Shown: positions 5,495 to 48,889, counted from the first letter of the stretch. The stretch: 64,000 nt of DNA from Candidatus Dormiibacterota bacterium (GCA_036495095.1 DASXNK010000194.1:14498-78497), one strand, 5' to 3'. The notes: generated by a model not told the origin, from the letters alone. Numbers and translations: made by a program.

Positions 5495-5953
5495 TCAGCG
5501 GGGCAGCTGCTCGCGCCAGACGTTGCCGAGGACCCGCACCGGCCCGGCCAGCCCCTCGCGACAGCAGGCCAGGACCTCGGGGCCGATGGGCGGGTACATC
5601 TCCAGGGTGGCGAGATCCTCCACCGGCTCCCAGGCGACGCCGACGAGGCGGCCGTCCATGCCCGCGCGGAGGCTGCCGCCGCGGATGCTCCCGGCGTAGA
5701 CCAGGTTCACGAGATGGCGGCCGAGCGGCGCCACCGACTCGCAGAGCAGCAGCAGGCGGCCGACGTCGACCTCGTAGCCGGTCTCCTCACGAAGCTCGCG
5801 CTCGGCGGCGGCGGCCAGGGTCTCCCCCACCTCGACGCCACCGCCGGGCAGCAGCCGGTAGCGGCGGCCGTTCTTCAGGTGCTGGACCAGCAGGACCCGA
5901 TCGCCGTCCTGGATGAGCACCGCCACGCGGATCCGGATCTCGCGCGCGTGCAT
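5495..5953 (-). CDS. NUDIX hydrolase (MutT-like)
   Basis: Nudix box 'LPGGGVEVGETLAAAAERELREETG'. ATG at 5953-5951 chosen over the upstream track start (6079) because the extra 42 aa are low-complexity. Confidence 0.7.
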   Translation of the reverse strand: MHAREIRIRVAVLIQDGDRVLLVQHLKNGRRYRLLPGGGVEVGETLAAAAERELREETGYEVDVGRLLLLCESVAPLGRHLVNLVYAGSIRGGSLRAGMDGRLVGVAWEPVEDLATLEMYPPIGPEVLACCREGLAGPVRVLGNVWREQLPR

Positions 5954-6001
5954 CGGCGGATCATCCCACGCCCACCGCCGGTCGGGTTTCTCCCACACCT
6001 G

Positions 6002-6030
6002 TTGACTCCGAACGCCTGTTCGTGTACGCT
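6002..6030 (+). promoter_or_regulatory. sigma-A-type promoter of the LysM gene: -35 TTGACT (6002-6007), 17 nt spacer, -10 TACGCT (6025-6030)
   Basis: Hexamers and spacing read directly from the sequence. LexA box 1 lies inside the spacer. Confidence 0.5.
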
Positions 6031-6052
6031 CGCCATGCGAACAGGCGTTCGT
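6009..6052. promoter_or_regulatory. two LexA (SOS) boxes: CGAACGCCTGTTCG (6009-6022) and CGAACAGGCGTTCG (6039-6052); the whole 44 bp forms a larger inverted repeat
   Basis: Both match the Gram-positive/actinobacterial SOS box consensus (T)CGAAC-N4-GTTCG(A) perfectly in the core. Located between divergent NUDIX and LysM genes. Confidence 0.7.
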
Positions 6053-6090
6053 GAGCAGAGACGACCCCCCATCGACCACCCACCCACGAC

Positions 6091-6414
6091 ATGACCAACC
6101 TCCTCCACGACTTCGCCCCCGCCAACGCCCGCCGGCGCCGGCGCCGCATGCGCGCCATCGAACGGCGCATCCTGCTCGCGCTCGCCGGGGCGCTGATCCT
6201 CCTCGTGCTCCTCGGGAACGTGGTCTACGGCGGCAGCAGCGGTGGCACCCAGGTGGTCACCGTGGGCCCCGGTGACACGGTCTGGAGCATCGCCTCCGCG
6301 CACTACCCCGACGACGGCGACCTGCGTCAGCGGGTCGACGACATCCTGTCCATCAACCACCTCAGTGGCGGGACGCTGGTGCCGGGCCAGGCGCTGACGA
6401 TCCCGCCGCCATAG
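6091..6414 (+). CDS. chiZ: LysM-domain membrane protein, ChiZ (Rv2719c)-like SOS-induced cell-wall/division protein
   Basis: Arg-rich N-terminus, one TM helix ('ILLALAGALILLVLLGNVV'), C-terminal LysM 'VVTVGPGDTVWSIASAHY...VDDILSINHLSGGTLVPGQALTIP'. Immediately downstream of dual LexA boxes. Confidence 0.65.
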   Translation: MTNLLHDFAPANARRRRRRMRAIERRILLALAGALILLVLLGNVVYGGSSGGTQVVTVGPGDTVWSIASAHYPDDGDLRQRVDDILSINHLSGGTLVPGQALTIPPP

Positions 6415-6527
6415 GCAGGGGAGGAAGCGCCCGGCGCTGACCCACGCGCGCGATCGGACCCACCTCCCTCTCCGCTCTCGCGCCGCGGCCCCTCCCCTGC
6501 TCCGGTGGTGCTGCCTCCGACGAGCGG

Positions 6528-7451
6528 CTATGGGGCGCCCAGCAGCTGCCGCAGCGCAGGCTCGAGGTCCGGATACCGGACGGCATAGCCGAGACCGAGC
6601 AGGCGCCCGGCCGACACCCGCTGCCCGGTGGTGACCATCGACGCCATCTCGCCGTAGAGGAGGCGCAGCGCCAGCGCGGGGACGGGCGTCACCGCGGGAC
6701 GGCGGAGCACGGCGCCCAGGGTTCTCGACAGCTCGGCGTTGGTGACCGGGGTGGGCGCGACCACGTTGACCGGTCCCGCCGCCCCGGCATCGTCGACGCA
6801 GTGCAGGAGCGCGCCGGCGACGTCGTCGAGGTGCACCCAGCTGACCCACTGGCGCCCGCCGGCGACCGGCCCTCCGGCGCCGAGACGGAAGGGCGGGAGC
6901 ATCTTGGCGAGCGCCCCGCCCTCCGGCGAGAGCACCACCCCGGTGCGCGCGACGACCACCCGCAGGCCCGAGGCATCGGCCGCCGCGAGGGCCTCGCGCT
7001 CCCAGGCGACGACCACTCCGGCGAGGAAGTCGGCGCCCGCCGGCGACCGCTCGTCGAGCCATTCGTCGCCGTGAGGGCCGTAGAAGCCGGTCGCCGACTG
7101 CGACACCAGCGTCCGCGGCCTCCGATCCTCCGGCAGCCCGGCGATGGCGGCGACCAGCGAACGGGTGGAGAGCACCCGGGAGTCGGAGATCTCGCGCCTG
7201 GCGCTCTCGGTCCAGCGCTGCGCCACCGGCTCGCCGAGCAGGTGGACGACGGCGTCCGCGCCGGCGAGCGCGGCCTCGGGCGGCGGGGCCGACGCCGGGC
7301 GGGGCCACGCGTGGAGCTCCACGCCCGAGAGCCCTCGGTGGGCACGGTCTGGGTCCCGGGTCAGGGCCACGACCTCGTCGCCGCGGCGCTGCAGGGCGGC
7401 GGCCACCGCGGTGCCGATCGTCCCGGTGGCTCCGGTGAGCACCACGCGCAT
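6528..7451 (-). CDS. TIGR01777/YfcH family NAD-dependent epimerase-dehydratase-like oxidoreductase (with DUF1731 C-terminus)
   Basis: 'MRVVLTGATGTIGTAVAAAL' Rossmann motif; 307 aa; overall YfcH-like pattern. Confidence 0.6.
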   Translation of the reverse strand: MRVVLTGATGTIGTAVAAALQRRGDEVVALTRDPDRAHRGLSGVELHAWPRPASAPPPEAALAGADAVVHLLGEPVAQRWTESARREISDSRVLSTRSLVAAIAGLPEDRRPRTLVSQSATGFYGPHGDEWLDERSPAGADFLAGVVVAWEREALAAADASGLRVVVARTGVVLSPEGGALAKMLPPFRLGAGGPVAGGRQWVSWVHLDDVAGALLHCVDDAGAAGPVNVVAPTPVTNAELSRTLGAVLRRPAVTPVPALALRLLYGEMASMVTTGQRVSAGRLLGLGYAVRYPDLEPALRQLLGAP

Positions 7452-39244: not shown

Positions 39245-41379
39245 GCCGGGCTTGCCGTCCCGGCGCCGGCGGCCTGCGCCTGCTTGCCCGCCAGCTCGCT
39301 GATCGCCAGCTTGCGGGAGAGGTTGACGCGGCCCTTGTCGTCGATCTCGATGACCTTGACCATGATCTCGTCACCGATGTTGACCACGTCCTCGACCTTG
39401 TTGACGCGGTGGTCGGCGAGCTGGGAGATGTGGACCAGCCCGTCCTTCTTCGGCAGGATCTCGACGAAGGCGCCGAAGTTCATGATCCGGACCACCTTGC
39501 CCTTGTAGATCTTGCCCACCTCCACGTCCTCGGTGAGGTCGCGGATCATGGCGATCGCCTGCTGCATCGCGGCGCCGTCGTTCGAGGCGATCGACACCCG
39601 GCCGTCGTCCTCGACGTCGATCTGGACGCCGGTCTCCTCGACGATCCGGCGGATGGTCTTGCCACCCGGGCCGATGACGTCGCGGATCTTGTCGGGGTTG
39701 ATCTGGATGGTCTCGATGCGTGGCGCCCACATCGACATCTCCTCCCGCGGCGCGGGCAGGGTCTCGGTCATCTTGCCGAGGATGTGCAGCCGGCCCACCC
39801 GGGCCTGCTCCAGCGCCTGCTCCATCAGCTCCCAGCGGAGCCCCTTGATCTTCATGTCCATCTGCAGGGCGGTGATGCCCGTCTCGGTGCCGGCGACCTT
39901 GAAGTCCATGTCGCCGAGGGCGTCCTCCATCCCCTGGATGTCGCTGAGGATGGCCGCCCTGTCACTGTTCTCGTCGGTGATCAGCCCCATGGCGATGCCC
40001 GCCACCGGCGCCTTCAGCGGCACCCCGGCGTCCATCAGCGCCATCGTCGAGCCGCACACCGAGGCCATCGAGGTGGAGCCGTTGCTGCTCAGGATCTCGC
40101 TGACGATGCGGACCACGTACGGGAAGTCCTCGTCGGAGGGCATCACGTTGTGCACCGCGCGCTCGGCGAGCGCGCCGTGACCGATCTCCCGCCGGCCCGC
40201 GGAGCGCAGCGGGCGCGCCTCCCCGACCGAGTAGGGCGGGAAGTTGTAGTGGTGCATGAAGCGCTTGAACTCCTCGAGACCGAGGCCGTCCAGCTTCTGC
40301 TGATCCTGGCCGGAACCGAGGGTGACGACGCTCAGCGCCTGGGTCTGGCCGCGGGTGAAGAGGGCGCTGCCGTGGGTGCGGGGAAGCAGACCGACCTGCG
40401 ACCAGATGTGCCGGATCTCGTCGGTGCGGCGGCCGTCAGGACGGATGCCCTCGTCGAGGATGGCGGCGCGCACGGCGCGCTTGACCTCGCCCTCGAACGC
40501 CTTCTTGATCTCGGCCTCGCGATCGACGAAGCGCGGCGCCAGCTGCTCGACGGTCTGCTTCTTGAGCTCGTCGAGGGCCCGCTCCCGGGCCGCCTTGTCG
40601 GCGTTGCGGGCGGCCTCGCCGATGCTGCCGGCGATCGCCTCGGCCACCGCGGCCTTGACCTCGGGGTCGACCGCGTTGGAGGGATAGGTCATCGGCGCCT
40701 TGCCGACCTTCGCCTTGATCTCGTTCTGGAAGGCGACCAGGCGGCGGATCTCGTCGTGGGCGAGGTGGAGCGCCTGGAGCATGACCGCCTCGGGCACCTG
40801 CATGGCCCCCGCCTCGACCATGCCGATGGCGTCGTCGGTGCCGGCCACGATCAGGTCGAGGTCGGACTCCTGGAGTTCCTGCAGGGTGGGATTCAGCACC
40901 AGCCGGCCGTCGATGAGGCCGACCCGGACGCAGCCCACCGGGCCCGCGTGGGGGACGTCGCTGATCGCCAGGGCGAGCGATGCGCCGGTGACAGCGAGCG
41001 TGACCGGGTCGTTCTCCTGGTCGGCGCTGACCACGGTGGCGACCACCTGGACGTCGTTGCGGAAGTCCTTGGGGAAGAGCGGCCGCAGCGGCCGGTCCAT
41101 CAGCCGGCAGGCGAGCGTCGCCGCCTCGGTGGGACGGCCCTCACGGCGGGGGAAGCTGCCGGGGATGCGACCCGCGGCGTAGAGCTTCTCCTCGTAGTCG
41201 CAGGTGAGCGGGAAGAAGTCGATGCCCTCTCGGGGCTGGTGCGCGCCCACCGCGGTGACCAGCACCATGGTGTCGCCGGAGCGGATGAGCACGGCGCCGC
41301 TGGCCTGCTCTGCGATGTGGCCGGTCTCGACGGTGAGCTTTCGGCCGGTGTAGTCCATTTCGAATTTCTGGTAGGGCAT
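39241..41379 (-). CDS. pnp: polyribonucleotide nucleotidyltransferase (PNPase)
   Basis: Two RNase PH domains, KH, S1 '[21 protein letters not shown]'. ATG 41379 with GAGG RBS. ~310 nt leader after rpsO. Confidence 0.95.
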
Positions 41380-41637
41380 GGGAACCTCGGATGTCGGGTG
41401 ATGATCCCGGTCCGGGTATCTCCGCCACGGGCACCTGCGCCACCGAGGGTGAGGTGTTGGGGATGAGAGAGCGACGGTGCGGTCGCGCCGTTGGGCAGCG
41501 GTCCGTTGCCGATCTCCGATCGCCAACGTCTCACCGCGTCGGCCGCGCAGCGCGTCCTGTGAAGGGACACCCGCGACCGGGTGGGACGTGGACGGTGTGG
41601 GTTACAAAGTGTTGTAGTGGTGATGCCCACGCATCAG

Positions 41638-41667
41638 CGGGGCGAAACGCCCTCCCCGAGGAGGGCG
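41638..41667 (-). terminator. GC-rich hairpin(s) (GGGCGaaaCGCCC / GCCCTCCccgaGGAGGGC) directly after rpsO; likely a partial terminator/attenuator before pnp
   Basis: Perfect 7-bp stem and adjacent 5-bp stem read from the sequence. Followed on the coding strand by only a short GTTTCG tract, so read-through is likely. Confidence 0.45.
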
Positions 41668-41689
41668 GCGGCCATTGAGCGCTGGCAGC

Positions 41690-41956
41690 TCAGCGGCGCA
41701 GTCCCAGGCGGGCGATGATGGCACGGTAGCGCGACACATCGGTCCGGGTCAGGTAGTCGAGCATCCGCCGGCGGCGTCCGACCAGCTTCAGCAGACCGCG
41801 CCGGGAGGCGTGATCCTGCGGGTGCTCGCGCAGATGCTCGGTGAGCATCCTGATGCGCTCGCTGAGGATCGCGATCTGCACCTCCGCCGAGCCGGTGTCG
41901 GTCTCGTGCTGGCGGTGCTCGGCGATGATCTCGGACTTCTCGCGGATGTCGGGCAC
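41690..41956 (-). CDS. rpsO: 30S ribosomal protein S15
   Basis: 88 aa '[59 protein letters not shown]'. Confidence 0.95.
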
Positions 41957-42102
41957 TGGGTTCTCCTGGGGCCCTGGAGCGGGCAGTCACCGTGCGGAGG
42001 GCCGTTCGCCGCGCATCGCTGGACGCGTCACCACGGCGGGGGCTCCCCGCAGGTCGTGAGGGAGTGTACAGGAAGGCGGGGGTCGGCACCCGGCGCCGGG
42101 CC

Positions 42103-43020
42103 TCAGCCGGGGGCGCAGAGGCGGACCGCCCCGGGCAGGATCTCCAGCGTGGCCGGCGCCGGGCCCACCTCCTCCCCCTCCATCTCGAAGCAGAGCGGCG
42201 GCTGCTCGAGGGGGGTCACCCGCACCCTGCGGCCGTGGAGGAGGCGGATGCCGGGCTGCCCGATGTGGGTCCCCGCGTAGATGCGGCGGATCCCGGTGAG
42301 CGAGCGCAGCCGGGGCAGGTCGCCGAAGAGCACCACGTCGAAGAGACCGTCGGCGGGATCCGCGCCCGGGGCGACGCACATGCCGCCGCCGAAGTAGCGG
42401 CCGTTGGCGATCACCACGTTCTGGTAGCGGCCCTCCTCGGCGACGCCGTCGATCTCCACCCGCGCCGCCCTCGGCCGGTAGCTGAGCAGCGAGGCCAGCG
42501 AGTGCCAGAGGAACGTCGCCGTGCCCCCGGCCCGCTTGCTGCTGCGGTTGACCCGGCCGACCACCTCGCCGCCGATGCCGCAGTCGGCGATGTTGATGAA
42601 ATGCCGGGGCGCGGCGCCGTCGAGGGTGATCCGGCCCACGTCGACGGGCCGGCTGGCGCCGGCGGCGAGCACCGCGGCGGCGCCGGCCGCGCTCGCGGGG
42701 ATCCCGGCGGTGCGGCGGAAGTCGCCGCCGGTGCCGCTGGGGAGCAGCCCGAGCACCGCCAGCGGGGCGATCGCGCTCCCGTCGGCGTCGAGGAACCCGT
42801 TGACCACCTCGTTCAGGGTGCCGTCGCCGCCCACCGCCACCACCCGCTCGCAGCCCTCGCGCAGCGCCGCGCGGGTCAGCTCGGTGGCCTCCCGCGGGGC
42901 GGTGGTGAGACGCTCCTCGACCTCCACCCCGGCGGCGGCGAGCACCCGGCGCGTCTCCGGCCAGCTCCGGCCGGTGCGCCCGGCGCAGCTCGCGGGGTTG
43001 ACGACGGCGACGGTGGTCAC
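42103..43020 (-). CDS. diacylglycerol kinase catalytic-domain (DAGK/YegS/BmrU family) lipid kinase
   Basis: 'VAVVNPASCAGRTG', 'VVAVGGDGTLNEV', 'LGLLPSGTGGDF'. GTG 43020 overlaps the upstream stop (GTGA). Confidence 0.75.
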   Translation of the reverse strand: MTTVAVVNPASCAGRTGRSWPETRRVLAAAGVEVEERLTTAPREATELTRAALREGCERVVAVGGDGTLNEVVNGFLDADGSAIAPLAVLGLLPSGTGGDFRRTAGIPASAAGAAAVLAAGASRPVDVGRITLDGAAPRHFINIADCGIGGEVVGRVNRSSKRAGGTATFLWHSLASLLSYRPRAARVEIDGVAEEGRYQNVVIANGRYFGGGMCVAPGADPADGLFDVVLFGDLPRLRSLTGIRRIYAGTHIGQPGIRLLHGRRVRVTPLEQPPLCFEMEGEEVGPAPATLEILPGAVRLCAPG

Positions 43021-44201
43021 CGCGGCGCCTCCGCCGTGCCGAGGTGGGCGGCAACCGCCTCGGCCAGCTCGAGCACCGGCACCGTCGCCGCCCCCTCGAG
43101 CCGGGCGGCGCAGCGCGCACAACCGGTGACCACCGCGCTGGCGCCGGCCGCGGCCGCGGCGGCGACCTCGGCGGCGAGGCGGTCGCGGTACCCGCCCGCG
43201 ATCGTCGGGTGGGTGAGTGGCAGCCCGCCGCCGCCTCCGGAGCAGGCGGTGGTGGCGCCCCGGCCGCGCAGCTCGACGACCTCGAGCCCGAGGCCGCTCA
43301 GCACGGCCCGCGGCGGGGCGGTGCAGTCGAGGTGGCGGGCGAGGAAGCAGGGGTCGTGGTAGGCGACCCGGCCGGTGGCCCCGGCGGGGCGGCCGGCGAG
43401 CGCCGCGCCGAGAACGGCGGCGAGCGGCTCGACGGTCAGGCCGGCGCCGAGCTGCGCCGCCCGGGTCGCCAGCAGGTGGGCGCACGACGGCGACTGCACC
43501 GCCACCCGGCGCGCCCCGGTGGCGGCGACGGCGGCGCACAGCCGCTCCAGCATCGCGGTGAGCGCCCCGGTGTCGCCGAAGCTGCGCGCCGGCGCGCCGC
43601 AGCAGCGGTGCTCGTCGAGCACGGTGAAGGCGACGCCGAGGGCGTGGAGCGCCCGCCCCGCGGCCAGCGCCGCCGCCGGACGCAGGCCGAGGGCCCCGCA
43701 GCCGGGGAGCAGCAGCATCCCGGCACCGGGGGTGGCGAGGCGGCGGAGCCCGGCGAGCGTCCCCGCCGGGTCGGTCCAGGCCGGCGTGCCCGTCTCGGCG
43801 GCGGGAACCCGGCCGGCGGCGGCCTCGGCCACCGCGCGCAGCCCCACCGGCGGGGTGGCCCCGGCGGCGAAGACGGCGGCACGCACCGCCCAGCTCAGCT
43901 CCGGGGTCTCCACCCCGTCCACCCGGCAGGGTGGCGTGCAGGCGCCGCAGGTGGCGCAGGCGAACGCGGCCTCGGCGGTGGCCGGCGCGGCGAATCCGCC
44001 GGGGGTGCGCAGCGCCGCGAGCACGCTGCGGGCGTGGCCCCAGGGCTGGTGGCGCTCGTTGGCGGTCACCGCCAGGGTGGGGCAGGCACTGCGGCACATC
44101 TTCGGACAGGCGGCGCAGCGCCCGGCGGCGATCGCCTGCGCCTCCGGCAGGGGGAGGGCGGTCATCGCGCCGGCGATGAGCGGCCGGGGGGAGTCCCCCA
44201 C
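43017..44201 (-). CDS. Fe-S oxidoreductase with two cysteine-rich CCG domains (GlcF/GlpC-like)
   Basis: 'CAACPKMCRSACPT' ferredoxin-type motif plus 'HDPCFLARHLDC' CCG motif. Confidence 0.7.
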   Translation of the reverse strand: MGDSPRPLIAGAMTALPLPEAQAIAAGRCAACPKMCRSACPTLAVTANERHQPWGHARSVLAALRTPGGFAAPATAEAAFACATCGACTPPCRVDGVETPELSWAVRAAVFAAGATPPVGLRAVAEAAAGRVPAAETGTPAWTDPAGTLAGLRRLATPGAGMLLLPGCGALGLRPAAALAAGRALHALGVAFTVLDEHRCCGAPARSFGDTGALTAMLERLCAAVAATGARRVAVQSPSCAHLLATRAAQLGAGLTVEPLAAVLGAALAGRPAGATGRVAYHDPCFLARHLDCTAPPRAVLSGLGLEVVELRGRGATTACSGGGGGLPLTHPTIAGGYRDRLAAEVAAAAAAGASAVVTGCARCAARLEGAATVPVLELAEAVAAHLGTAEAPR

Positions 44202-44214
44202 GACAGGCCCGCGC

Positions 44215-45645
44215 TCACAGCCCCCACTTCCCCGGGTTGGCGACCCCGCCGGGGTCGAGCGCCAGCTTCAGCCGGCGGAGCACCTCGAGCCCGCCCTCCC
44301 CCAGCTCCGCGGCCATGTGGGGAGCCCGGGCGAGGCCGGCGCCGTGATGGTGGCCGATGCTCGCCCCGGTCTCGGCGGCGGCCGCCATCACCTCCTCCCA
44401 GAGCCGCTCGTGGAGGGGGACCGCCGCCTCCTCCTCGGCGGCGACGCCGGCGAAGCTGAAGTACAGGCAGGCCCCGTCGGGGTAGCCGTGGCTGAGGTGG
44501 CAGAGCACGATCAGCCGTCCCCCCAGCCGACGGCGCACCGCCTCGTGGAGGGCCACCAGCCGCGACCAGGGAGCGGCGAGCTCGACGGTGTCGATCACCG
44601 CGCCGGGCAGGGGCAGGTAGCGCGCCTGGGCGAAGCCGATGTCGTCGCGGCGCGCGTACCAGGCGGCGACCGCGCCGGGGTCGCAGGCACGGGCGCCGTG
44701 GGCGGCGCAGATCGCGGCGAGCTCGGCGGCCTCGGCCCCGGCGACCCCGGCGCGGCCCTCGCAGGAGGTGAGCAGGAGCGCATCATCGTCCAGCCCCTCC
44801 CCCGCCCCCGCACCCACCCCCAGCTCGGCGGCCTGGAGGGCGGTGTCGGCGGGGTCGTAGAGGCGGAGCAGCGAGGGCCGCAGCCCGGCCTGGAGGAGCT
44901 CGCGCACCGCCGCCACCCCGGCCGCGAAGGTGGCGAACACGGCGGCGTGGTCGACCCGCCGCTCCGGCAGCGGACGGAGCCGGAGGGTCACCTCGACCAC
45001 CACTCCGAAGCCGCCCTCGCTGCCCAGGAACAGGCGGCGCAGATCGGGACCGGCGCCGCTCGCGGGCTGGGCGCGGAGGGAGACGGCGGTGCCGTCGGGG
45101 AGCACCGCCTCGAGGCCGGCGACGAGGTCGTCGATGCGCCCGTAGCGGGTGCTCAGCTGCCCCGCCGAACGGGTGGCCACGAAGCCGCCGACGGTGGACA
45201 GCGCCAGCGAGGAGGGGTGGTGGCCGGTGGTGCGGCCACGCTCGCGGCAGGCGTCCTCGAGGCGGCTGCCGAGCACCCCGGGCTCGACCACGACCCAGCC
45301 GCTCTCCAGATCCCAGTCGAGGATGCGGTCGAGCCGCTTGAGGTCGAGCACCACCCCGCCCCGGACCGGGACCGCGGCGCCGCACACCCCGGTGCCGGCG
45401 CCGAAGGGCGTGAAGGGCACCCCGGCACGGTGGCAGGTGGCGCAGACGGCTGCGACCTGTTCGCGGTCGGCGGGCCAGACCACTGCGTCGGGGCCGGGCA
45501 GGGGGTGGCCGCCGCGCTCGGCGATCAGCGCCCGCGGCCAGAGGTCGTGGGCGACGGCGTCGCGGTCGGCGGGCTCGGTGCTGAGCCCGCGGTCGCCGAC
45601 GGCCTCGCGGAGCTCGTCGAGAAACCCCGCAGGCAGAGCGCTCAC
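44215..45645 (-). CDS. FAD-linked oxidase (PCMH/GlcD family; FAD_binding_4 plus FAD-oxidase_C)
   Basis: 'PFTPFGAGTGVCGAAVP', 'GHHPSSLALSTVGGFVATRSAG'. GTG 45645 overlaps the upstream stop. The track ORF overextends. Confidence 0.7.
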   Translation of the reverse strand: MSALPAGFLDELREAVGDRGLSTEPADRDAVAHDLWPRALIAERGGHPLPGPDAVVWPADREQVAAVCATCHRAGVPFTPFGAGTGVCGAAVPVRGGVVLDLKRLDRILDWDLESGWVVVEPGVLGSRLEDACRERGRTTGHHPSSLALSTVGGFVATRSAGQLSTRYGRIDDLVAGLEAVLPDGTAVSLRAQPASGAGPDLRRLFLGSEGGFGVVVEVTLRLRPLPERRVDHAAVFATFAAGVAAVRELLQAGLRPSLLRLYDPADTALQAAELGVGAGAGEGLDDDALLLTSCEGRAGVAGAEAAELAAICAAHGARACDPGAVAAWYARRDDIGFAQARYLPLPGAVIDTVELAAPWSRLVALHEAVRRRLGGRLIVLCHLSHGYPDGACLYFSFAGVAAEEEAAVPLHERLWEEVMAAAAETGASIGHHHGAGLARAPHMAAELGEGGLEVLRRLKLALDPGGVANPGKWGL

Positions 45646-46937
45646 GCCGCCGCGACGCCGCGCAGGCGCGCCGCGGCCCGGCCGGCGCGCGCCCCCGTCC
45701 AGGCGGCGACGCCGAGGCCGCCGCCGCGCAGGGTGGTGTCGAGGCCACCGAGCAGAGCCCCGCAGGCGAGGAGGTTGTCGAGCACCGGGGCGCCGAAGCC
45801 GTCGACGGGGCGGCCCTCGGCGTCGGTGCGCACCCCGGCGGCGAGAAACGGCTGGGGCGTGAAGCGGGTTCGCTCGACCAGGTCGCGCGGGCTCTGCGCC
45901 TCGAGGGCGAGACCGCCGGCGAAGAGGGGCAGCCCGAGCAGCGGCTCGCGCGGCCGGGGCTCGCCGGTCAGCCCTCCACCGAGGAACTTCCCGGTGGCGA
46001 GGATCAGCACCTGGCAGCTCAGGGTGTCGCCGTCGGCGGCCACGACCGCGGTGACCCGGCGCCCGCCGCGGTGCACCCCCGTCACCGTGCCGGTGATCAC
46101 CTCCACCCCGGCGCGGCGGGCCATCGCCTCGGCGGCGCGGGCGAGCCGCCATCCCGGCGCCGACGGCGGCGGGCTGAGCAGCTCGGCGACCCGCACCCCG
46201 GCGGCCGCCTCGACCCGGGCGCGGACCCCGTCGGCGTCCTCGAGGCCGAGCACGGCGGGGAGCAGCGCCAGCTCCACGTCGCCGTCGCCGAGCCCGGCGC
46301 GGAGTGCCGCGCCCAGCGCCTCGGCCCCGCCCGGGCCCTCGACGGCGCGGGCGACGGTGGCGTCGTCGAGGTCTCCGGCGAGGCTCTCGTCGATGCCCGG
46401 AAGCTCCGGGTCGAGGGTGACGGCGCGGGCGGAGACGGCGTCGCCGAGGCGCTCGGCGATGGCCGCCGCGACCGCCGGGGCGTCGACGCGCAGCAGCCCG
46501 CGGATGCCGGCGACCGCGACCCGCCCGCCGCCGTCGAGGTCGCCTGCGCCAATGGTCTCGAGCACCACCCCCGCCCGGCGCAGCTGGCCGGTCACCGCGG
46601 CGAGCAGGGCCGGCCGGTCCAGGCCCACCCGCAGCCGGAGGCCGGCCCCGCCGAGCTCGGCGGCGAGGCGGCGGGCCTCGGCCTCGAGCTCGAACCGCGG
46701 GGGCGGCGCGGCGCCGCCGGCGACGTAGGGGTGGTCGGGCGCGTCGCGGGCGAGGCGGCCGAGCCAGCCTCCGGGGTCGGCGGCCTCGGCCGGAGGGACG
46801 AGGTCGAGGGCACCGGAGGAGACCGCAGTCGCAGCCGGGCCGCGCCGGACCAGGACGACCTGGAGCCCGGCACGGGCGGCGGTCACCGCCGCCCAGGCGC
46901 CCGCGAGTCCCCCGCCGACAACGACGACCTCCGGCAT
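45642..46937 (-). CDS. FAD-dependent oxidoreductase (GlpB-like Rossmann flavoprotein)
   Basis: 'VVVVGGGLAGAWAAVTAARAGLQVVLV' dinucleotide-binding motif; 431 aa. ATG 46937. Confidence 0.6.
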   Translation of the reverse strand: MPEVVVVGGGLAGAWAAVTAARAGLQVVLVRRGPAATAVSSGALDLVPPAEAADPGGWLGRLARDAPDHPYVAGGAAPPPRFELEAEARRLAAELGGAGLRLRVGLDRPALLAAVTGQLRRAGVVLETIGAGDLDGGGRVAVAGIRGLLRVDAPAVAAAIAERLGDAVSARAVTLDPELPGIDESLAGDLDDATVARAVEGPGGAEALGAALRAGLGDGDVELALLPAVLGLEDADGVRARVEAAAGVRVAELLSPPPSAPGWRLARAAEAMARRAGVEVITGTVTGVHRGGRRVTAVVAADGDTLSCQVLILATGKFLGGGLTGEPRPREPLLGLPLFAGGLALEAQSPRDLVERTRFTPQPFLAAGVRTDAEGRPVDGFGAPVLDNLLACGALLGGLDTTLRGGGLGVAAWTGARAGRAAARLRGVAAA

Positions 46938-46995
46938 GTCGCGGATGCTACCGGGCGCCGGCCCTCGGGCGGCCGCTCCGGCTGGGTGTGATCCG

Positions 46996-47946
46996 CTACC
47001 CGAGCTCGGCGGGCGCGCTCCCCGGACGCAGCCGCAGCCGGGTCTCCACCACATCCCGCCGCATCTGCTCGCTCAGCGCCTCCGGCGTGGCATAGCGGAC
47101 GTCGTCCCGCAGCCGCGACATGAACGCCACCCGCACCGGCTGGTGGTAGATGTCGCCGGAGAAGTCGAGCAGGTGGGGCTCGACGGTCAGCTTCGTCCCC
47201 CCGAAGGTGGGGCGGTAGCCGACGTAGGTCGCCGCCGCGTGCCACTCCCCGCGCACCCTCACCCAGGTGGCGTAGATGCCCCGCGGCGGCAGGCACTTGC
47301 CCGGGGTGATCGCCAGGTTGGCGGTCGGAAAGCCGAGCCCGGTGCCGATCCTCTCGCCGTGCTCGACCCGGGAGTCGACGAAGTAGGGGTGTCCGAGCAC
47401 GCGGTTGGCGCTGTCGAGGTCGCCGTGGGAGAGGGCGGCGCGCACCAGCGAGCTGGAGAACACCTCTCCCCCCTCGCGCTCGGCGTCGACCACGTCGACG
47501 TCGAAGCCCCGGGTGGCGCCCCAGGAGCGCAGGAAGGGGATGTCGCCGCTGCGGCGGTGGCCGAGGGCGAAGTCGTGGCCCACCACCATTCGGCGCAGGT
47601 TGAAGCCCTGGCTGAGCCGCTCCAGGAACTGCTCGGCGGTCCAGCGGCTGAGCTCGTGGGTGAACTCGAGCACCACCAGCCGGTCGAGCCCGGCGGCGGT
47701 GAGCAGGTCGGCCTTCTCGTCGAGGGTGGTCAGCCGCGGCGGGCAGTGATCGGGGTCGAGCACGCAGCGCGGATGGGGGTCGAAGGTGACCAGCACCGAC
47801 TCGCCGCCGTGCTCGGGAGCGGCGGACACCATCCGGTCGACGATGCGGCGGTGACCCCGGTGAACCCCGTCGAAGTTGCCGATGGTGACGAACGCGAGCG
47901 GGTCGCCCTCGCCGGCGCCGTCGGGCAGCCCGAACTCGGTCCTCAC
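46996..47946 (-). CDS. ribF: bifunctional riboflavin kinase / FMN adenylyltransferase
   Basis: 'VTIGNFDGVHRGHRRI', 'PTANL', flavokinase C-domain. Confidence 0.9.
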   Translation of the reverse strand: MRTEFGLPDGAGEGDPLAFVTIGNFDGVHRGHRRIVDRMVSAAPEHGGESVLVTFDPHPRCVLDPDHCPPRLTTLDEKADLLTAAGLDRLVVLEFTHELSRWTAEQFLERLSQGFNLRRMVVGHDFALGHRRSGDIPFLRSWGATRGFDVDVVDAEREGGEVFSSSLVRAALSHGDLDSANRVLGHPYFVDSRVEHGERIGTGLGFPTANLAITPGKCLPPRGIYATWVRVRGEWHAAATYVGYRPTFGGTKLTVEPHLLDFSGDIYHQPVRVAFMSRLRDDVRYATPEALSEQMRRDVVETRLRLRPGSAPAELG

Positions 47947-47947
47947 C

Positions 47948-48889
47948 TCAGCACCCGGCCAGCACCTTGGTGGGGCGGTAGAGATTGCCGGTGAGCTCGC
48001 CGACGGCGAGCAGCTCGCCGAGCGCGCTGTGGGCGCGGCAGGCCCCGCGGGGACGCGGATCGGGCAGCTTCGGCACCCACACCGACTGCCCGCGCTGCAC
48101 CTGGAGCGCCTGGGCGGGGCCGAGGTCGAGCCGGGGGAGGAAGGCGACGGCGAGGTCGAGCGGGCGGAGTGCGGCGGCGGGGTCGTCCATCGCCTCCAGC
48201 TCCGCGACGGTGATCGAGTCGGCGACGGTCATCGGGCCGTAGGCGGTGCGCTCGAGCCAGGCGAGCAGCCCGCCGGTTCCGAGGGCGTCGCCCACGTCGG
48301 AGGCGAGCACGCGCATGTAGGTGCCCTTGCCGCAGAGAACGTCGACCTCGGCCTCGGCGACCTCGCCGGGGCGGAACTCGAGCAGCCGTGCCTCGAGGAT
48401 CGTGACCGGGCGCGGCTGCCGCTCCACCTCCACCCCCTGGCGGGCGAGCTCGTAGAGGTGGCGCCCGTCGTGGCGCACCGCCGAGTGCATCGGCGGCACC
48501 TGCTCGATGTCGCCGACGAAGCGCGCCAGCGCCGCACGCACCGCGTCGGCGTCGACCGCGCTCGCATCGCCGGTGCGGGTGACCTCGCCCTCGAGGTCCA
48601 TGGTGGTGCTGCGCTCGCCGAGGCGGAGCACGCAGTGATAGCGCTTGGGCTGCTGGTGCAGGTAGTCGACCAGCCGGGTGGCCTGGCCGACACAGATCGG
48701 GAGCAGCCCGGTGGCGGCAGGATCGAGCGTCCCGGCGTGCCCCACGCGGCGCTCGCCGAGGATGCGGCGCACGTCGCGCACCGCCTGGAACGAGGTCACC
48801 CCCCGCGCCTTGTTGAGCGGCACGATGCCGTGATGGCGCGCGGGTGGGCGCCCCCGCCGGGTGGGGGCCGCCGTGACCGTCTCGTTCAC
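47948..48889 (-). CDS. truB: tRNA pseudouridine(55) synthase
   Basis: 'GIVPLNKARGVTSFQAVRDVRRILGERRVGHAGTLDPAATGLLPICVGQATRL'. GTG 48889 overlaps the nrnA stop. Confidence 0.9.
   Translation of the reverse strand: MNETVTAAPTRRGRPPARHHGIVPLNKARGVTSFQAVRDVRRILGERRVGHAGTLDPAATGLLPICVGQATRLVDYLHQQPKRYHCVLRLGERSTTMDLEGEVTRTGDASAVDADAVRAALARFVGDIEQVPPMHSAVRHDGRHLYELARQGVEVERQPRPVTILEARLLEFRPGEVAEAEVDVLCGKGTYMRVLASDVGDALGTGGLLAWLERTAYGPMTVADSITVAELEAMDDPAAALRPLDLAVAFLPRLDLGPAQALQVQRGQSVWVPKLPDPRPRGACRAHSALGELLAVGELTGNLYRPTKVLAGC

Follow-up and report, generated by a model that had tools for sequence, protein, structure and literature searches.

The locus between ribF and rpsO of a Candidatus Dormiibacterota bacterium raises the question of what a GlpB-like flavoprotein (A), a flavin adenine dinucleotide (FAD)-linked oxidase (B), an iron–sulfur (Fe-S) protein (C), and a lipid kinase (D) accomplish together in one operon. 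The four genes were analyzed within a stretch of 64,000 nucleotides (nt; GCA_036495095.1 DASXNK010000194.1:14498-78497), which is called the window throughout and in which positions are counted from the first letter. The original prediction had described B as a GlcD-like oxidase and the four genes as a membrane-lipid oxidation-phosphorylation module. By its sequence and active site, B is placed here in the family of alkyl-dihydroxyacetone-phosphate (alkyl-DHAP) synthase, AGPS, and the partners of B are found again beside it in other phyla. A possible answer, somewhat less likely than not, is that the genes form a conserved operon acting on the glycerol backbone of lipids, in which B would carry out AGPS-type chemistry on 1-substituted DHAP. 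The four genes read as follows, with GC3 denoting the G+C content of third codon positions and DAGK diacylglycerol (DAG) kinase:

45642-46937, minus strand: gene A, GlpB-like FAD flavoprotein of 431 amino acids (aa) with an ATG start and an N-terminal GGGLAG dinucleotide-binding motif (GC3, Pfam, NCBIfam).
44215-45645, minus strand: gene B, AGPS-family (alkyl-DHAP synthase-like) FAD-linked oxidase of 476 aa with a GTG start (Pfam, matches to PDB structures).
43017-44165, minus strand: gene C, Fe-S protein of 382 aa with two [4Fe-4S] and two CCG units, the architecture of GlcF and GlpC (Pfam).
42103-43020, minus strand: gene D, lipid kinase of the YegS/Rv2252/BmrU family (DAGK fold) of 305 aa with a GTG start (Pfam, TIGR00147).

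Protein B carries the Pfam domains FAD_binding_4 (1.3e-39) and FAD-oxidase_C (7.8e-41), a PCMH/VAO-type FAD-binding domain with a cap domain as in AGPS, and is 100% identical to a Dormibacteraeota protein from a metagenome-assembled genome (MAG). In a single-sequence search of solved structures, B matched AGPS best with 184 bits, compared to 165 bits for D-lactate dehydrogenase (D-LDH). A family profile built from 13 members scored 348 bits over the full length of the Dictyostelium AGPS and 298 bits for the cavia AGPS, compared to 269 bits for D-LDH and 224 bits for PDB 9qgz, which was deposited as a glycolate oxidase. R261, Y395, and H432-434 of B align with Arg419, Tyr578, and His615-617 of the cavia enzyme, and the SHHHGVG motif of both solved AGPS structures falls on H432-H434, whereas D-LDH carries E, L, and G-E-H at these positions. 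The deposited AGPS structures include Arg419 and Tyr578 mutants (4bc7, 4bca). In the family alignment (A1), R261 and Y395 are invariant and the three histidines are invariant or nearly so (H434 in at least 90%). Each AGPS-type residue is retained in about 91-93 of 95 aligned sequences and is lost only in some GlcE-like second paralogues. Because HHH replaces E-H, the Arg and Tyr of AGPS are kept, and the score for the GlcD equivalog TIGR00387 lies far below its cut-off (200.7 versus 567.9), the GlcD-like label was corrected to the AGPS family. Judged by sequence and active site, B is a member of this family and not a demonstrated AGPS orthologue.

The conservation of the set was followed by scanning species-representative genomes with the alignment of B, which gave more than 580 confirmed relatives; 80 loci were kept (individual loci are cited by L numbers), and A, C, D, and GlpD were searched in them by tblastn. 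Loci with B-C-D or B-D were found in Dormibacterota, Actinomycetota, Myxococcota, Bdellovibrionota, and Thermodesulfobacteriota. Dormibacterota relatives with a 65%-identical B keep the entire order truB-ribF-A-B-C-D-rpsO-pnp with overlaps of 4 nt, and a more distant Dormibacterota locus (L065) reads ribF-A-B-D-rpsO and has no C. The retention of the same site at 65% identity and the recurrence of the partners by B across phyla point to more than chance. The genes are thus co-conserved elsewhere, as the earlier reading presupposed, with the full set in Dormibacterota and with B-C-D or B-D across phyla.

In nearly all cases, B-C-D or B-D lies next to glycerol 3-phosphate (G3P) dehydrogenase genes (GlpD, or GlpA plus GlpB), and in some next to a GlcE-like paralogue or a GlpK-like kinase. 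In Nitriliruptoria and other Actinomycetota, helY is followed by B, a C-like gene, D, and then a divergently transcribed GlpD; a divergent GlpD stands after B-C-D in L003, L005, L015, L016, L022, and L024, and B-D plus GlpD is found in the actinomycetotal loci L076 and L090. The surroundings of L090 encode alpha/beta-hydrolases, a thiolase, an acyl-CoA dehydrogenase, and an HAD phosphatase. In many Myxococcota, Bdellovibrionota, Thermodesulfobacteriota, and unclassified MAGs, a single strand carries a GlpA-like gene, a GlpB-like gene (A), sometimes a second B-type gene (B2), and then B, C, and D (L018, L025, L029, L031, L045, L070, and L080). L068 has a GlpA-GlpB-B-C-type order, in which D was not detected. 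Both L018 and L068 encode a CCG protein twice, downstream of GlpB and again downstream of B, and C of the window resembles the latter. Many Myxococcota loci place a paralogue with only the FAD_binding_4 domain between B and C, which results in a layout like GlcD-GlcE-GlcF. Loci of the Binatia, Ilumatobacteraceae, and Acidimicrobiia type combine GlpD and B with a GlpK-like FGGY kinase that scores 361-375 bits for TIGR01311 (cut-off 590). This context of a GlpD-like gene, B, and a GlpK-like kinase was seen in L044, L057, L064, L073, L074, L079, and L086, and a conserved 365-aa protein without a Pfam match is often encoded next after the kinase (e.g., L074 7016-8110).

The frequency of the partners was counted in those 44 loci in which the sequence extends 4 kb or more to either side of B. 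Of the partners, C (20 loci) and D (19 loci) were the most frequent, followed by a GlpA/D-like gene (18 loci), a B paralogue (13 loci), and A (8 loci). No partner occurred in 15 of the 44, which are mostly long stand-alone forms from Polyangiaceae. The Polyangiaceae B proteins (L006, L023, L027, L032, L037, L042, and others) are about 630-690 aa long and possess a C-terminal extension that resembles a second FAD_binding_4 domain; they are apparently fusions of B with a GlcE-like paralogue. In L037, B is neighbored by a phosphatidylserine decarboxylase and a methyltransferase-domain protein. Outside of the B-centred loci, L089 (6307-12612) encodes a GlpA/D-like protein (DAO and DAO_C), a GlpB-like protein that overlaps it by 4 nt, a PAP2 lipid phosphatase, a 127-aa open reading frame (ORF), and a DAGK-family kinase. 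As no AGPS-like gene is present in L089, G3P-dehydrogenase genes and a lipid kinase associate even without B.

The assignment of A, C, and D to their families is upheld by Pfam and NCBIfam, as is that of B to FAD-linked oxidases, so that none of the four domain assignments of the original prediction turned out to point to an unrelated family. FAD_binding_2 covers the full length of A (1.5e-19). The top ten NCBIfam matches of A are all GlpB models, and all of them are below cut-off (214 versus 680; 129.5 versus 174.15 for TIGR03378). A is identical to a public 431-aa protein that is named G3P dehydrogenase subunit B by JGI, and it shares 30-35% identity with the GlpB-like genes located downstream of GlpA-like genes elsewhere. 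An AlphaFold2 (AF2) model of A has a predicted local distance difference test score (pLDDT) of 91, and its best PDB folds are KstD- and SdhA-type flavoproteins with a template modeling score (TM) of at most 0.45; judged from this model, no structural representative seems to exist for GlpB-type flavoproteins.

Protein C contains Fer4_8 and two CCG domains (Pfam). Six of its eight ferredoxin cysteines are present in 38 of 38 homologues and the remaining two in 32 and 34 of the 38, and its CCG cysteines are largely conserved among homologues. C scores 59 for GlcF (NF008434, cut-off 333) and 17 for the GlpC equivalog (NF008369, cut-off 278). The description of C as a GlcF/GlpC-like Fe-S CCG protein holds for its architecture; in its relationships, C belongs to the CCG proteins encoded downstream of B in other phyla and not to the GlpC proteins encoded downstream of GlpB. 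Protein D combines DAGK_cat and YegS_C (Pfam) with a GGDG nucleotide-binding motif at residue 64, and it is identical to HEY2705857.1. It exceeds the cut-off of the YegS/Rv2252/BmrU lipid kinase family TIGR00147 (145.5 versus 118.65) and is below cut-off for every equivalog-level model (YegS, DgkB-type). Its closest solved relatives are YegS and DgkB.

The proposed function would start with the kinase. D, a soluble lipid kinase by its family, may phosphorylate a glycerolipid alcohol, which could be diacylglycerol or a mono-radyl-glycerol. A G3P-dehydrogenase-type enzyme would then oxidize C2 of the phosphorylated (1-substituted) glycerol. B would bind the resulting 1-substituted DHAP and exchange its C1 substituent through a flavin-N5 adduct, so that an sn-1 ether or ester may be made, swapped, or removed. 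If the substrate is acylated and a fatty alcohol takes part, the product would be an ether lipid, and no dedicated DHAP acyltransferase would be required; if the substrate is alkylated, the reaction may serve the salvage or degradation of alkylglycerols. A and C, which are of the electron-transfer type found in anaerobic G3P dehydrogenase and glycolate oxidase, may pass electrons to the quinone pool from the oxidation of the G3P to the DHAP level, keep the flavin of B oxidized, or both, and the catalytic partner GlpA or GlpD would be encoded elsewhere in the genome.

Two independent lines of evidence suggest a DHAP-type substrate for B, namely the AGPS active-site residues and the G3P-dehydrogenase neighbors in most contexts. 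The kinase is the third constant partner, being D at some loci and a GlpK-like FGGY kinase in its place at others, and fits a linear route from kinase to dehydrogenase to B. The lipid-catabolic neighbors in L090 and the PAP2 phosphatase in L089 make the proposal lean slightly to salvage or degradation. The structure of the genes, their families, the conservation of the active site, and the synteny across phyla are observed; the substrates, the composition of a complex, and the direction of the pathway (ether-lipid synthesis versus salvage or catabolism of alkyl- or acyl-glycerols) are inferred. The membrane-lipid module of the original prediction stays conjectural as a whole, and its ether-lipid lead is strengthened by the active site of B and the G3P-dehydrogenase neighborhood. 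A more far-reaching version of the proposal appears doubtful: B and C, with A in Dormibacterota and the GlcE-like paralogue in other phyla, might act as a respiratory-type complex with the kinase and a G3P dehydrogenase and constitute an undescribed, widespread bacterial route that makes or breaks the sn-1 ether via 1-radyl-DHAP, without the fatty-acyl reductase (FAR) and DHAP acyltransferase (GNPAT) of the known aerobic pathway, from Dormibacterota to Actinomycetota including mycobacteria.

Several observations weigh against AGPS-type chemistry of B in a lipid operon. B shares no more than about 27-28% identity with AGPS, and the alignment, in which residue 6 of B corresponds to residue 93 of the Dictyostelium and residue 163 of the cavia enzyme, contains neither the N-terminal domain of eukaryotic AGPS (about 90-160 residues) nor its cap-domain insertion in B. 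A simple neighbor-joining tree rooted on D-LDH puts the two eukaryotic AGPS proteins outside of the bacterial clade, and the orthology of B with validated AGPS is therefore not demonstrated. The AF2 model of B (pLDDT 83) has the AGPS structure 4bby as its best structural match with a TM of 0.86, but D-LDH is almost as close with a TM of 0.83. The fold thus cannot separate AGPS from D-LDH, and the argument for an AGPS-type enzyme rests on the motifs. In the Dormibacterota-like locus L088, whose A is 52% identical, the order is ribF-A-D-rpsO without B and C. C was never seen without B, and this exclusive association, together with the GlcE-like paralogue in a layout like GlcD-GlcE-GlcF, points to real electron transfer from B. 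Neither a fatty-acyl reductase nor a DHAP acyltransferase was found beside any B-C-D cluster, be it in the neighborhood in the window or in the related loci examined, and tblastn with GlpA-like and GlpD-like queries did not find GlpA or GlpD in the 64-kb window. To our knowledge, ether lipids are unreported for Dormibacterota and mycobacteria.

In the first rival explanation, B and C, with A as an extra flavoprotein, form a quinone-linked respiratory dehydrogenase of the GlcDEF or Dld-II type that acts on a small soluble compound such as a 2-hydroxy acid or phosphorylated triose, without any ether chemistry and with D as a housekeeping DAG kinase. The pairing of a flavoprotein with an Fe-S/CCG protein as in GlcD/GlcF and the fused YdiJ (a match to NF049975), the GlcE-like FAD_binding_4-only paralogue in relatives, the absence of C without B, and the proximity of D-LDH to AGPS both in fold and in the single-sequence score agree with such an enzyme. 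It is nevertheless unlikely, as B has HHH and not E-H, keeps the AGPS-specific Arg and Tyr, and scores far below the GlcD cut-off, as does C for GlcF. Furthermore, a dehydrogenase of this type leaves the cross-phylum linkage to G3P dehydrogenase and a kinase unexplained, and B occurs without C in several lineages (L065, L076, and L090). The latter means that the Fe-S acceptor is not strictly needed, which is expected for the redox-neutral chemistry of AGPS.

In a second rival explanation, A-B-C would be a new peripheral membrane complex like GlpABC, in which B replaces GlpA. Such a complex would oxidatively cleave or form the C1 substituent of 1-radyl-DHAP or 1-radyl-G3P: hydrolysis of a flavin iminium would leave a reduced flavin, the electrons would reach quinone via A and C, and D would supply the phosphorylated lipid. 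The chemistry is plausible from the mechanism of AGPS, whose flavin is transiently in a reduced-type adduct. The four proteins have no predicted transmembrane helix, as in GlpABC, and C co-occurs only with B. Moreover, A of Dormibacterota is coupled to B by GTGA and has no glpA nearby, although glpB was reported to occur with glpA and glpC (PMC11962113). This complex is still quite unlikely, because A adjoins GlpA rather than B wherever GlpA is present, and because L088 has A-D but neither B nor C and L065 has A-B-D but no C. No fusion or evidence of a physical interaction was found among the loci, the apparent fusions being frame artefacts. It is very unlikely that the genes are functionally separate and merely accumulated at a permissive site between ribF and rpsO, with A as a remnant subunit of a G3P dehydrogenase, B as an orphan oxidase accompanied by its Fe-S partner C, and D as a DAG kinase. 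The content of the site does vary among Dormibacterota-like lineages (A-B-C-D, A-B-D, and A-D) and 15 of 44 B loci are without any partner, but the same partners surround B in unrelated chromosomal contexts of at least five phyla, and 4-nt start/stop overlaps join the genes in the window and in its relatives.

The overlaps were compared between the window and L008, L009, L001, L012, and L013. A and B share a GTGA start/stop overlap at 45645-45642, and C and D share one at 43020-43017; A/B and C/D are translationally coupled. The stop of B also carries a GTGA (44218-44215), but its GTG is out of frame with C and reaches a stop after 18 codons. Of the three GTGA overlaps that had been claimed, those of A/B and C/D therefore hold, and that of B/C does not. 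In L008, whose B is 95% identical, and in L009 and L013, C starts at the GTGA of the B/C junction, and L001 uses ATGA. At this junction, the window differs from L008 by one segment:

44151-44212, minus strand: 62-nt segment after the stop of B that replaces 3 nt of L008, a net gain of 59 nt (junction comparison).

The 62 nt in place of 3 shift the frame, break the GTGA coupling of B and C, and supply a new ATG start for C. C starts either at this ATG (44165, 382 aa, the NCBI call HEY2705858.1) or at an alternative GTG (44201, 394 aa), which leaves a spacer between B and C of 13-49 nt depending on the choice of start. The ancestral state was probably a GTGA-type overlap at all three junctions. 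An insertion, a duplication, or an assembly difference are candidate origins of the segment.

The extent of the cluster was determined by GC3 frame analysis, since the window has a G+C content of about 74% and raw ORF lists are crowded with spurious frames. Between 39 and 50 kb, a single coding frame is found at a time, always on the minus strand, and A-B-C-D occupy 42103-46937 as four consecutive genes in the order truB-ribF-A-B-C-D-rpsO-pnp. For A (431 aa), B (476 aa), and D (305 aa), the start positions are exactly those of public gene calls. Apparent C-D and A-B fusions emerged from stop-to-stop ORF clustering of the 80 loci and were rejected, as frame checks identified them as long open frames of high-GC DNA. 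The cluster is bounded by two genes:

46996-47946, minus strand: ribF, bifunctional riboflavin kinase/FAD synthetase, the upstream boundary with a 58-nt gap to A (FAD_syn and Flavokinase).
41690-41956, minus strand: rpsO, ribosomal protein S15, the downstream boundary with a 146-nt gap after D (Ribosomal_S15).

Both boundary genes score above their curated cut-offs (ribF, 306 versus 295 for NF004160; rpsO, 127 versus 63.65 for TIGR00952). The four-gene cluster between them is real. The claim that ribF and rpsO form a universally adjacent pair was overstated, as ribF of E. coli lies elsewhere. The order truB-ribF-rpsO-pnp is typical of Gram-positive-type lineages. The host, an uncultured soil bacterium, belongs to the Dormibacterota and not to the Thermoleophilia or Rubrobacteria. 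L088 (4846-10267) contains two tandem ribF-type genes, one with FAD_syn only, a 4-nt overlap of A and D, and aroC inserted on the other strand.

The overall G+C content of A-D is 77-82%, compared to 69-73% for ribF, rpsO, and pnp. In A-D, ribF, and pnp, GC3 reaches 0.95-0.98; in rpsO it is 0.91. A horizontal transfer by composition was considered and dropped, as GC3 is alike in the cluster, ribF, and pnp; the G+C excess of A-D arises from proteins rich in Ala, Gly, and Arg (26% Ala in C) and is no signal of transfer. A scan of 41300-48100 for promoters and terminators gave no sigma-70 or intrinsic-terminator pattern, and Rfam and tRNA scans of the whole window gave no matches. This includes the spacers between rpsO and pnp (41380-41689, about 310 nt) and between D and rpsO (41957-42102, 146 nt), which have no Rfam match and no sigma-70 or terminator pattern. 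Transmembrane helices were not predicted in A, B, C, or D.

The wider searches added some observations on the distribution and labeling of the loci. When plasmids were searched with B by tblastn, the only matches were to other oxidases and were confined to the N-terminal FAD domain. A homologue search with the B of an Actinomycetes locus (L076) returned environmental Actinomycetota only, with thousands of environmental proteins. The Dormibacterota-like loci L008, L009, L012, and L013 are labeled Chloroflexia, ‘Angelobacter’, or Actinomycetes, and the Acidimicrobiia-like locus L079 is labeled Bifidobacterium; such mismatches are probably binning or labeling noise. The identification of the myxobacterial B-B2-C-D cluster with the MXAN_1676 operon was considered and rejected, as FAR and GNPAT are absent from it and its divergent neighbor is a Lactamase_B_2 protein. 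In Archangium, this protein of the metallo-beta-lactamase fold is encoded at 5711-6793 (minus strand) of L035, divergently from B-B2-C-D.

Ether lipids of bacteria serve as biomarkers in the environment and are relevant to the ‘lipid divide’ between bacteria and archaea. Ether-lipid producers were inferred in many phyla by BLAST to the Agps of M. xanthus, with gene context ignored (PMC11868695; bioRxiv 10.64898/2026.06.23.733905). The large and abundant bacterial AGPS-like subfamily described here is found in the context of G3P dehydrogenase, GlcE-GlcF-like, and lipid-kinase genes and not with FAR and GNPAT. Either it belongs to a second, undescribed ether-lipid route of synthesis or salvage, or marker surveys over-count proteins that are not synthases. 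The same core appears to be the uncharacterized Rv2249c-Rv2252 locus of M. tuberculosis, which makes the proposal testable in tractable organisms. Searches of the literature retrieved no description that links AGPS with glpB, glpD, glpK, or Rv2251 and no function assigned to Rv2251.

Compared to known systems, the cluster is an uncharacterized variant of known enzyme kinds, for which the link to ether lipids is plausible. B has the two-domain FAD fold of AGPS (EC 2.5.1.26), the peroxisomal enzyme of eukaryotes that makes ether lipids in animals, and keeps its HHH loop, its catalytic Tyr, and its phosphate-binding Arg. In Myxococcus xanthus, the AGPS MXAN_1676 is encoded in an operon with a FAR-GNPAT protein (bioRxiv 10.1101/2025.10.10.681575), whereas the neighbors of B are Fe-S/CCG, GlpB-like, and DAGK-family genes. 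The cluster resembles GlpABC in that A is nearest to GlpB, C has the two [4Fe-4S] and two CCG units of GlpC, and a transmembrane helix is lacking, and in other phyla it opens with a GlpA-like gene followed by a GlpB-like gene. Bacterial glpA, glpB, and glpC are reported to travel together (PMC11962113). The window differs from this arrangement by the lack of GlpA, by scores of A and C under all GlpB and GlpC cut-offs, and by an AGPS-like gene in the place of glpA. With GlcDEF, YdiJ, and Dld-II, the cluster has the pairing of a PCMH-type flavoprotein and a GlcF-type Fe-S/CCG protein in common, to which relatives add a GlcE-like paralogue. Unlike in GlcDEF, B has the AGPS motif set in place of E-H, the GlcD and GlcF scores are far below cut-off, and the window has no GlcE-like gene. 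D has the domains and the GGDG motif of the YegS/DgkB/BmrU kinases and passes their family model.

The mycobacterial cluster glpD1-(Rv2250c)-Rv2250A/Rv2251-Rv2252, which is known here from the literature, likewise encodes a flavoprotein followed by a kinase of the YegS/Rv2252 family, with a G3P dehydrogenase gene adjacent. Rv2249c is glpD1 (PMC4866775), Rv2250A and Rv2251 are one split flavoprotein gene, which CDC1551 and M. bovis carry undivided (529 aa; PMC1501019), and the DAG kinase activity of Rv2252 was shown by experiment (Owens et al. 2006, as cited in PMC3229680). The same layout occurs in the actinomycetotal loci L076, L090, L003, and L005, and the Nitriliruptoria loci add C to it. 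Both the literature and the B-(C)-D synteny of Actinomycetota with a divergent GlpD make the parallel drawn by the original prediction to the mycobacterial flavoprotein/DAG-kinase cluster an apt one. Compared to the mycobacterial cluster, the window has the GlpB-like A in place of GlpD and, in addition, the Fe-S/CCG protein C.

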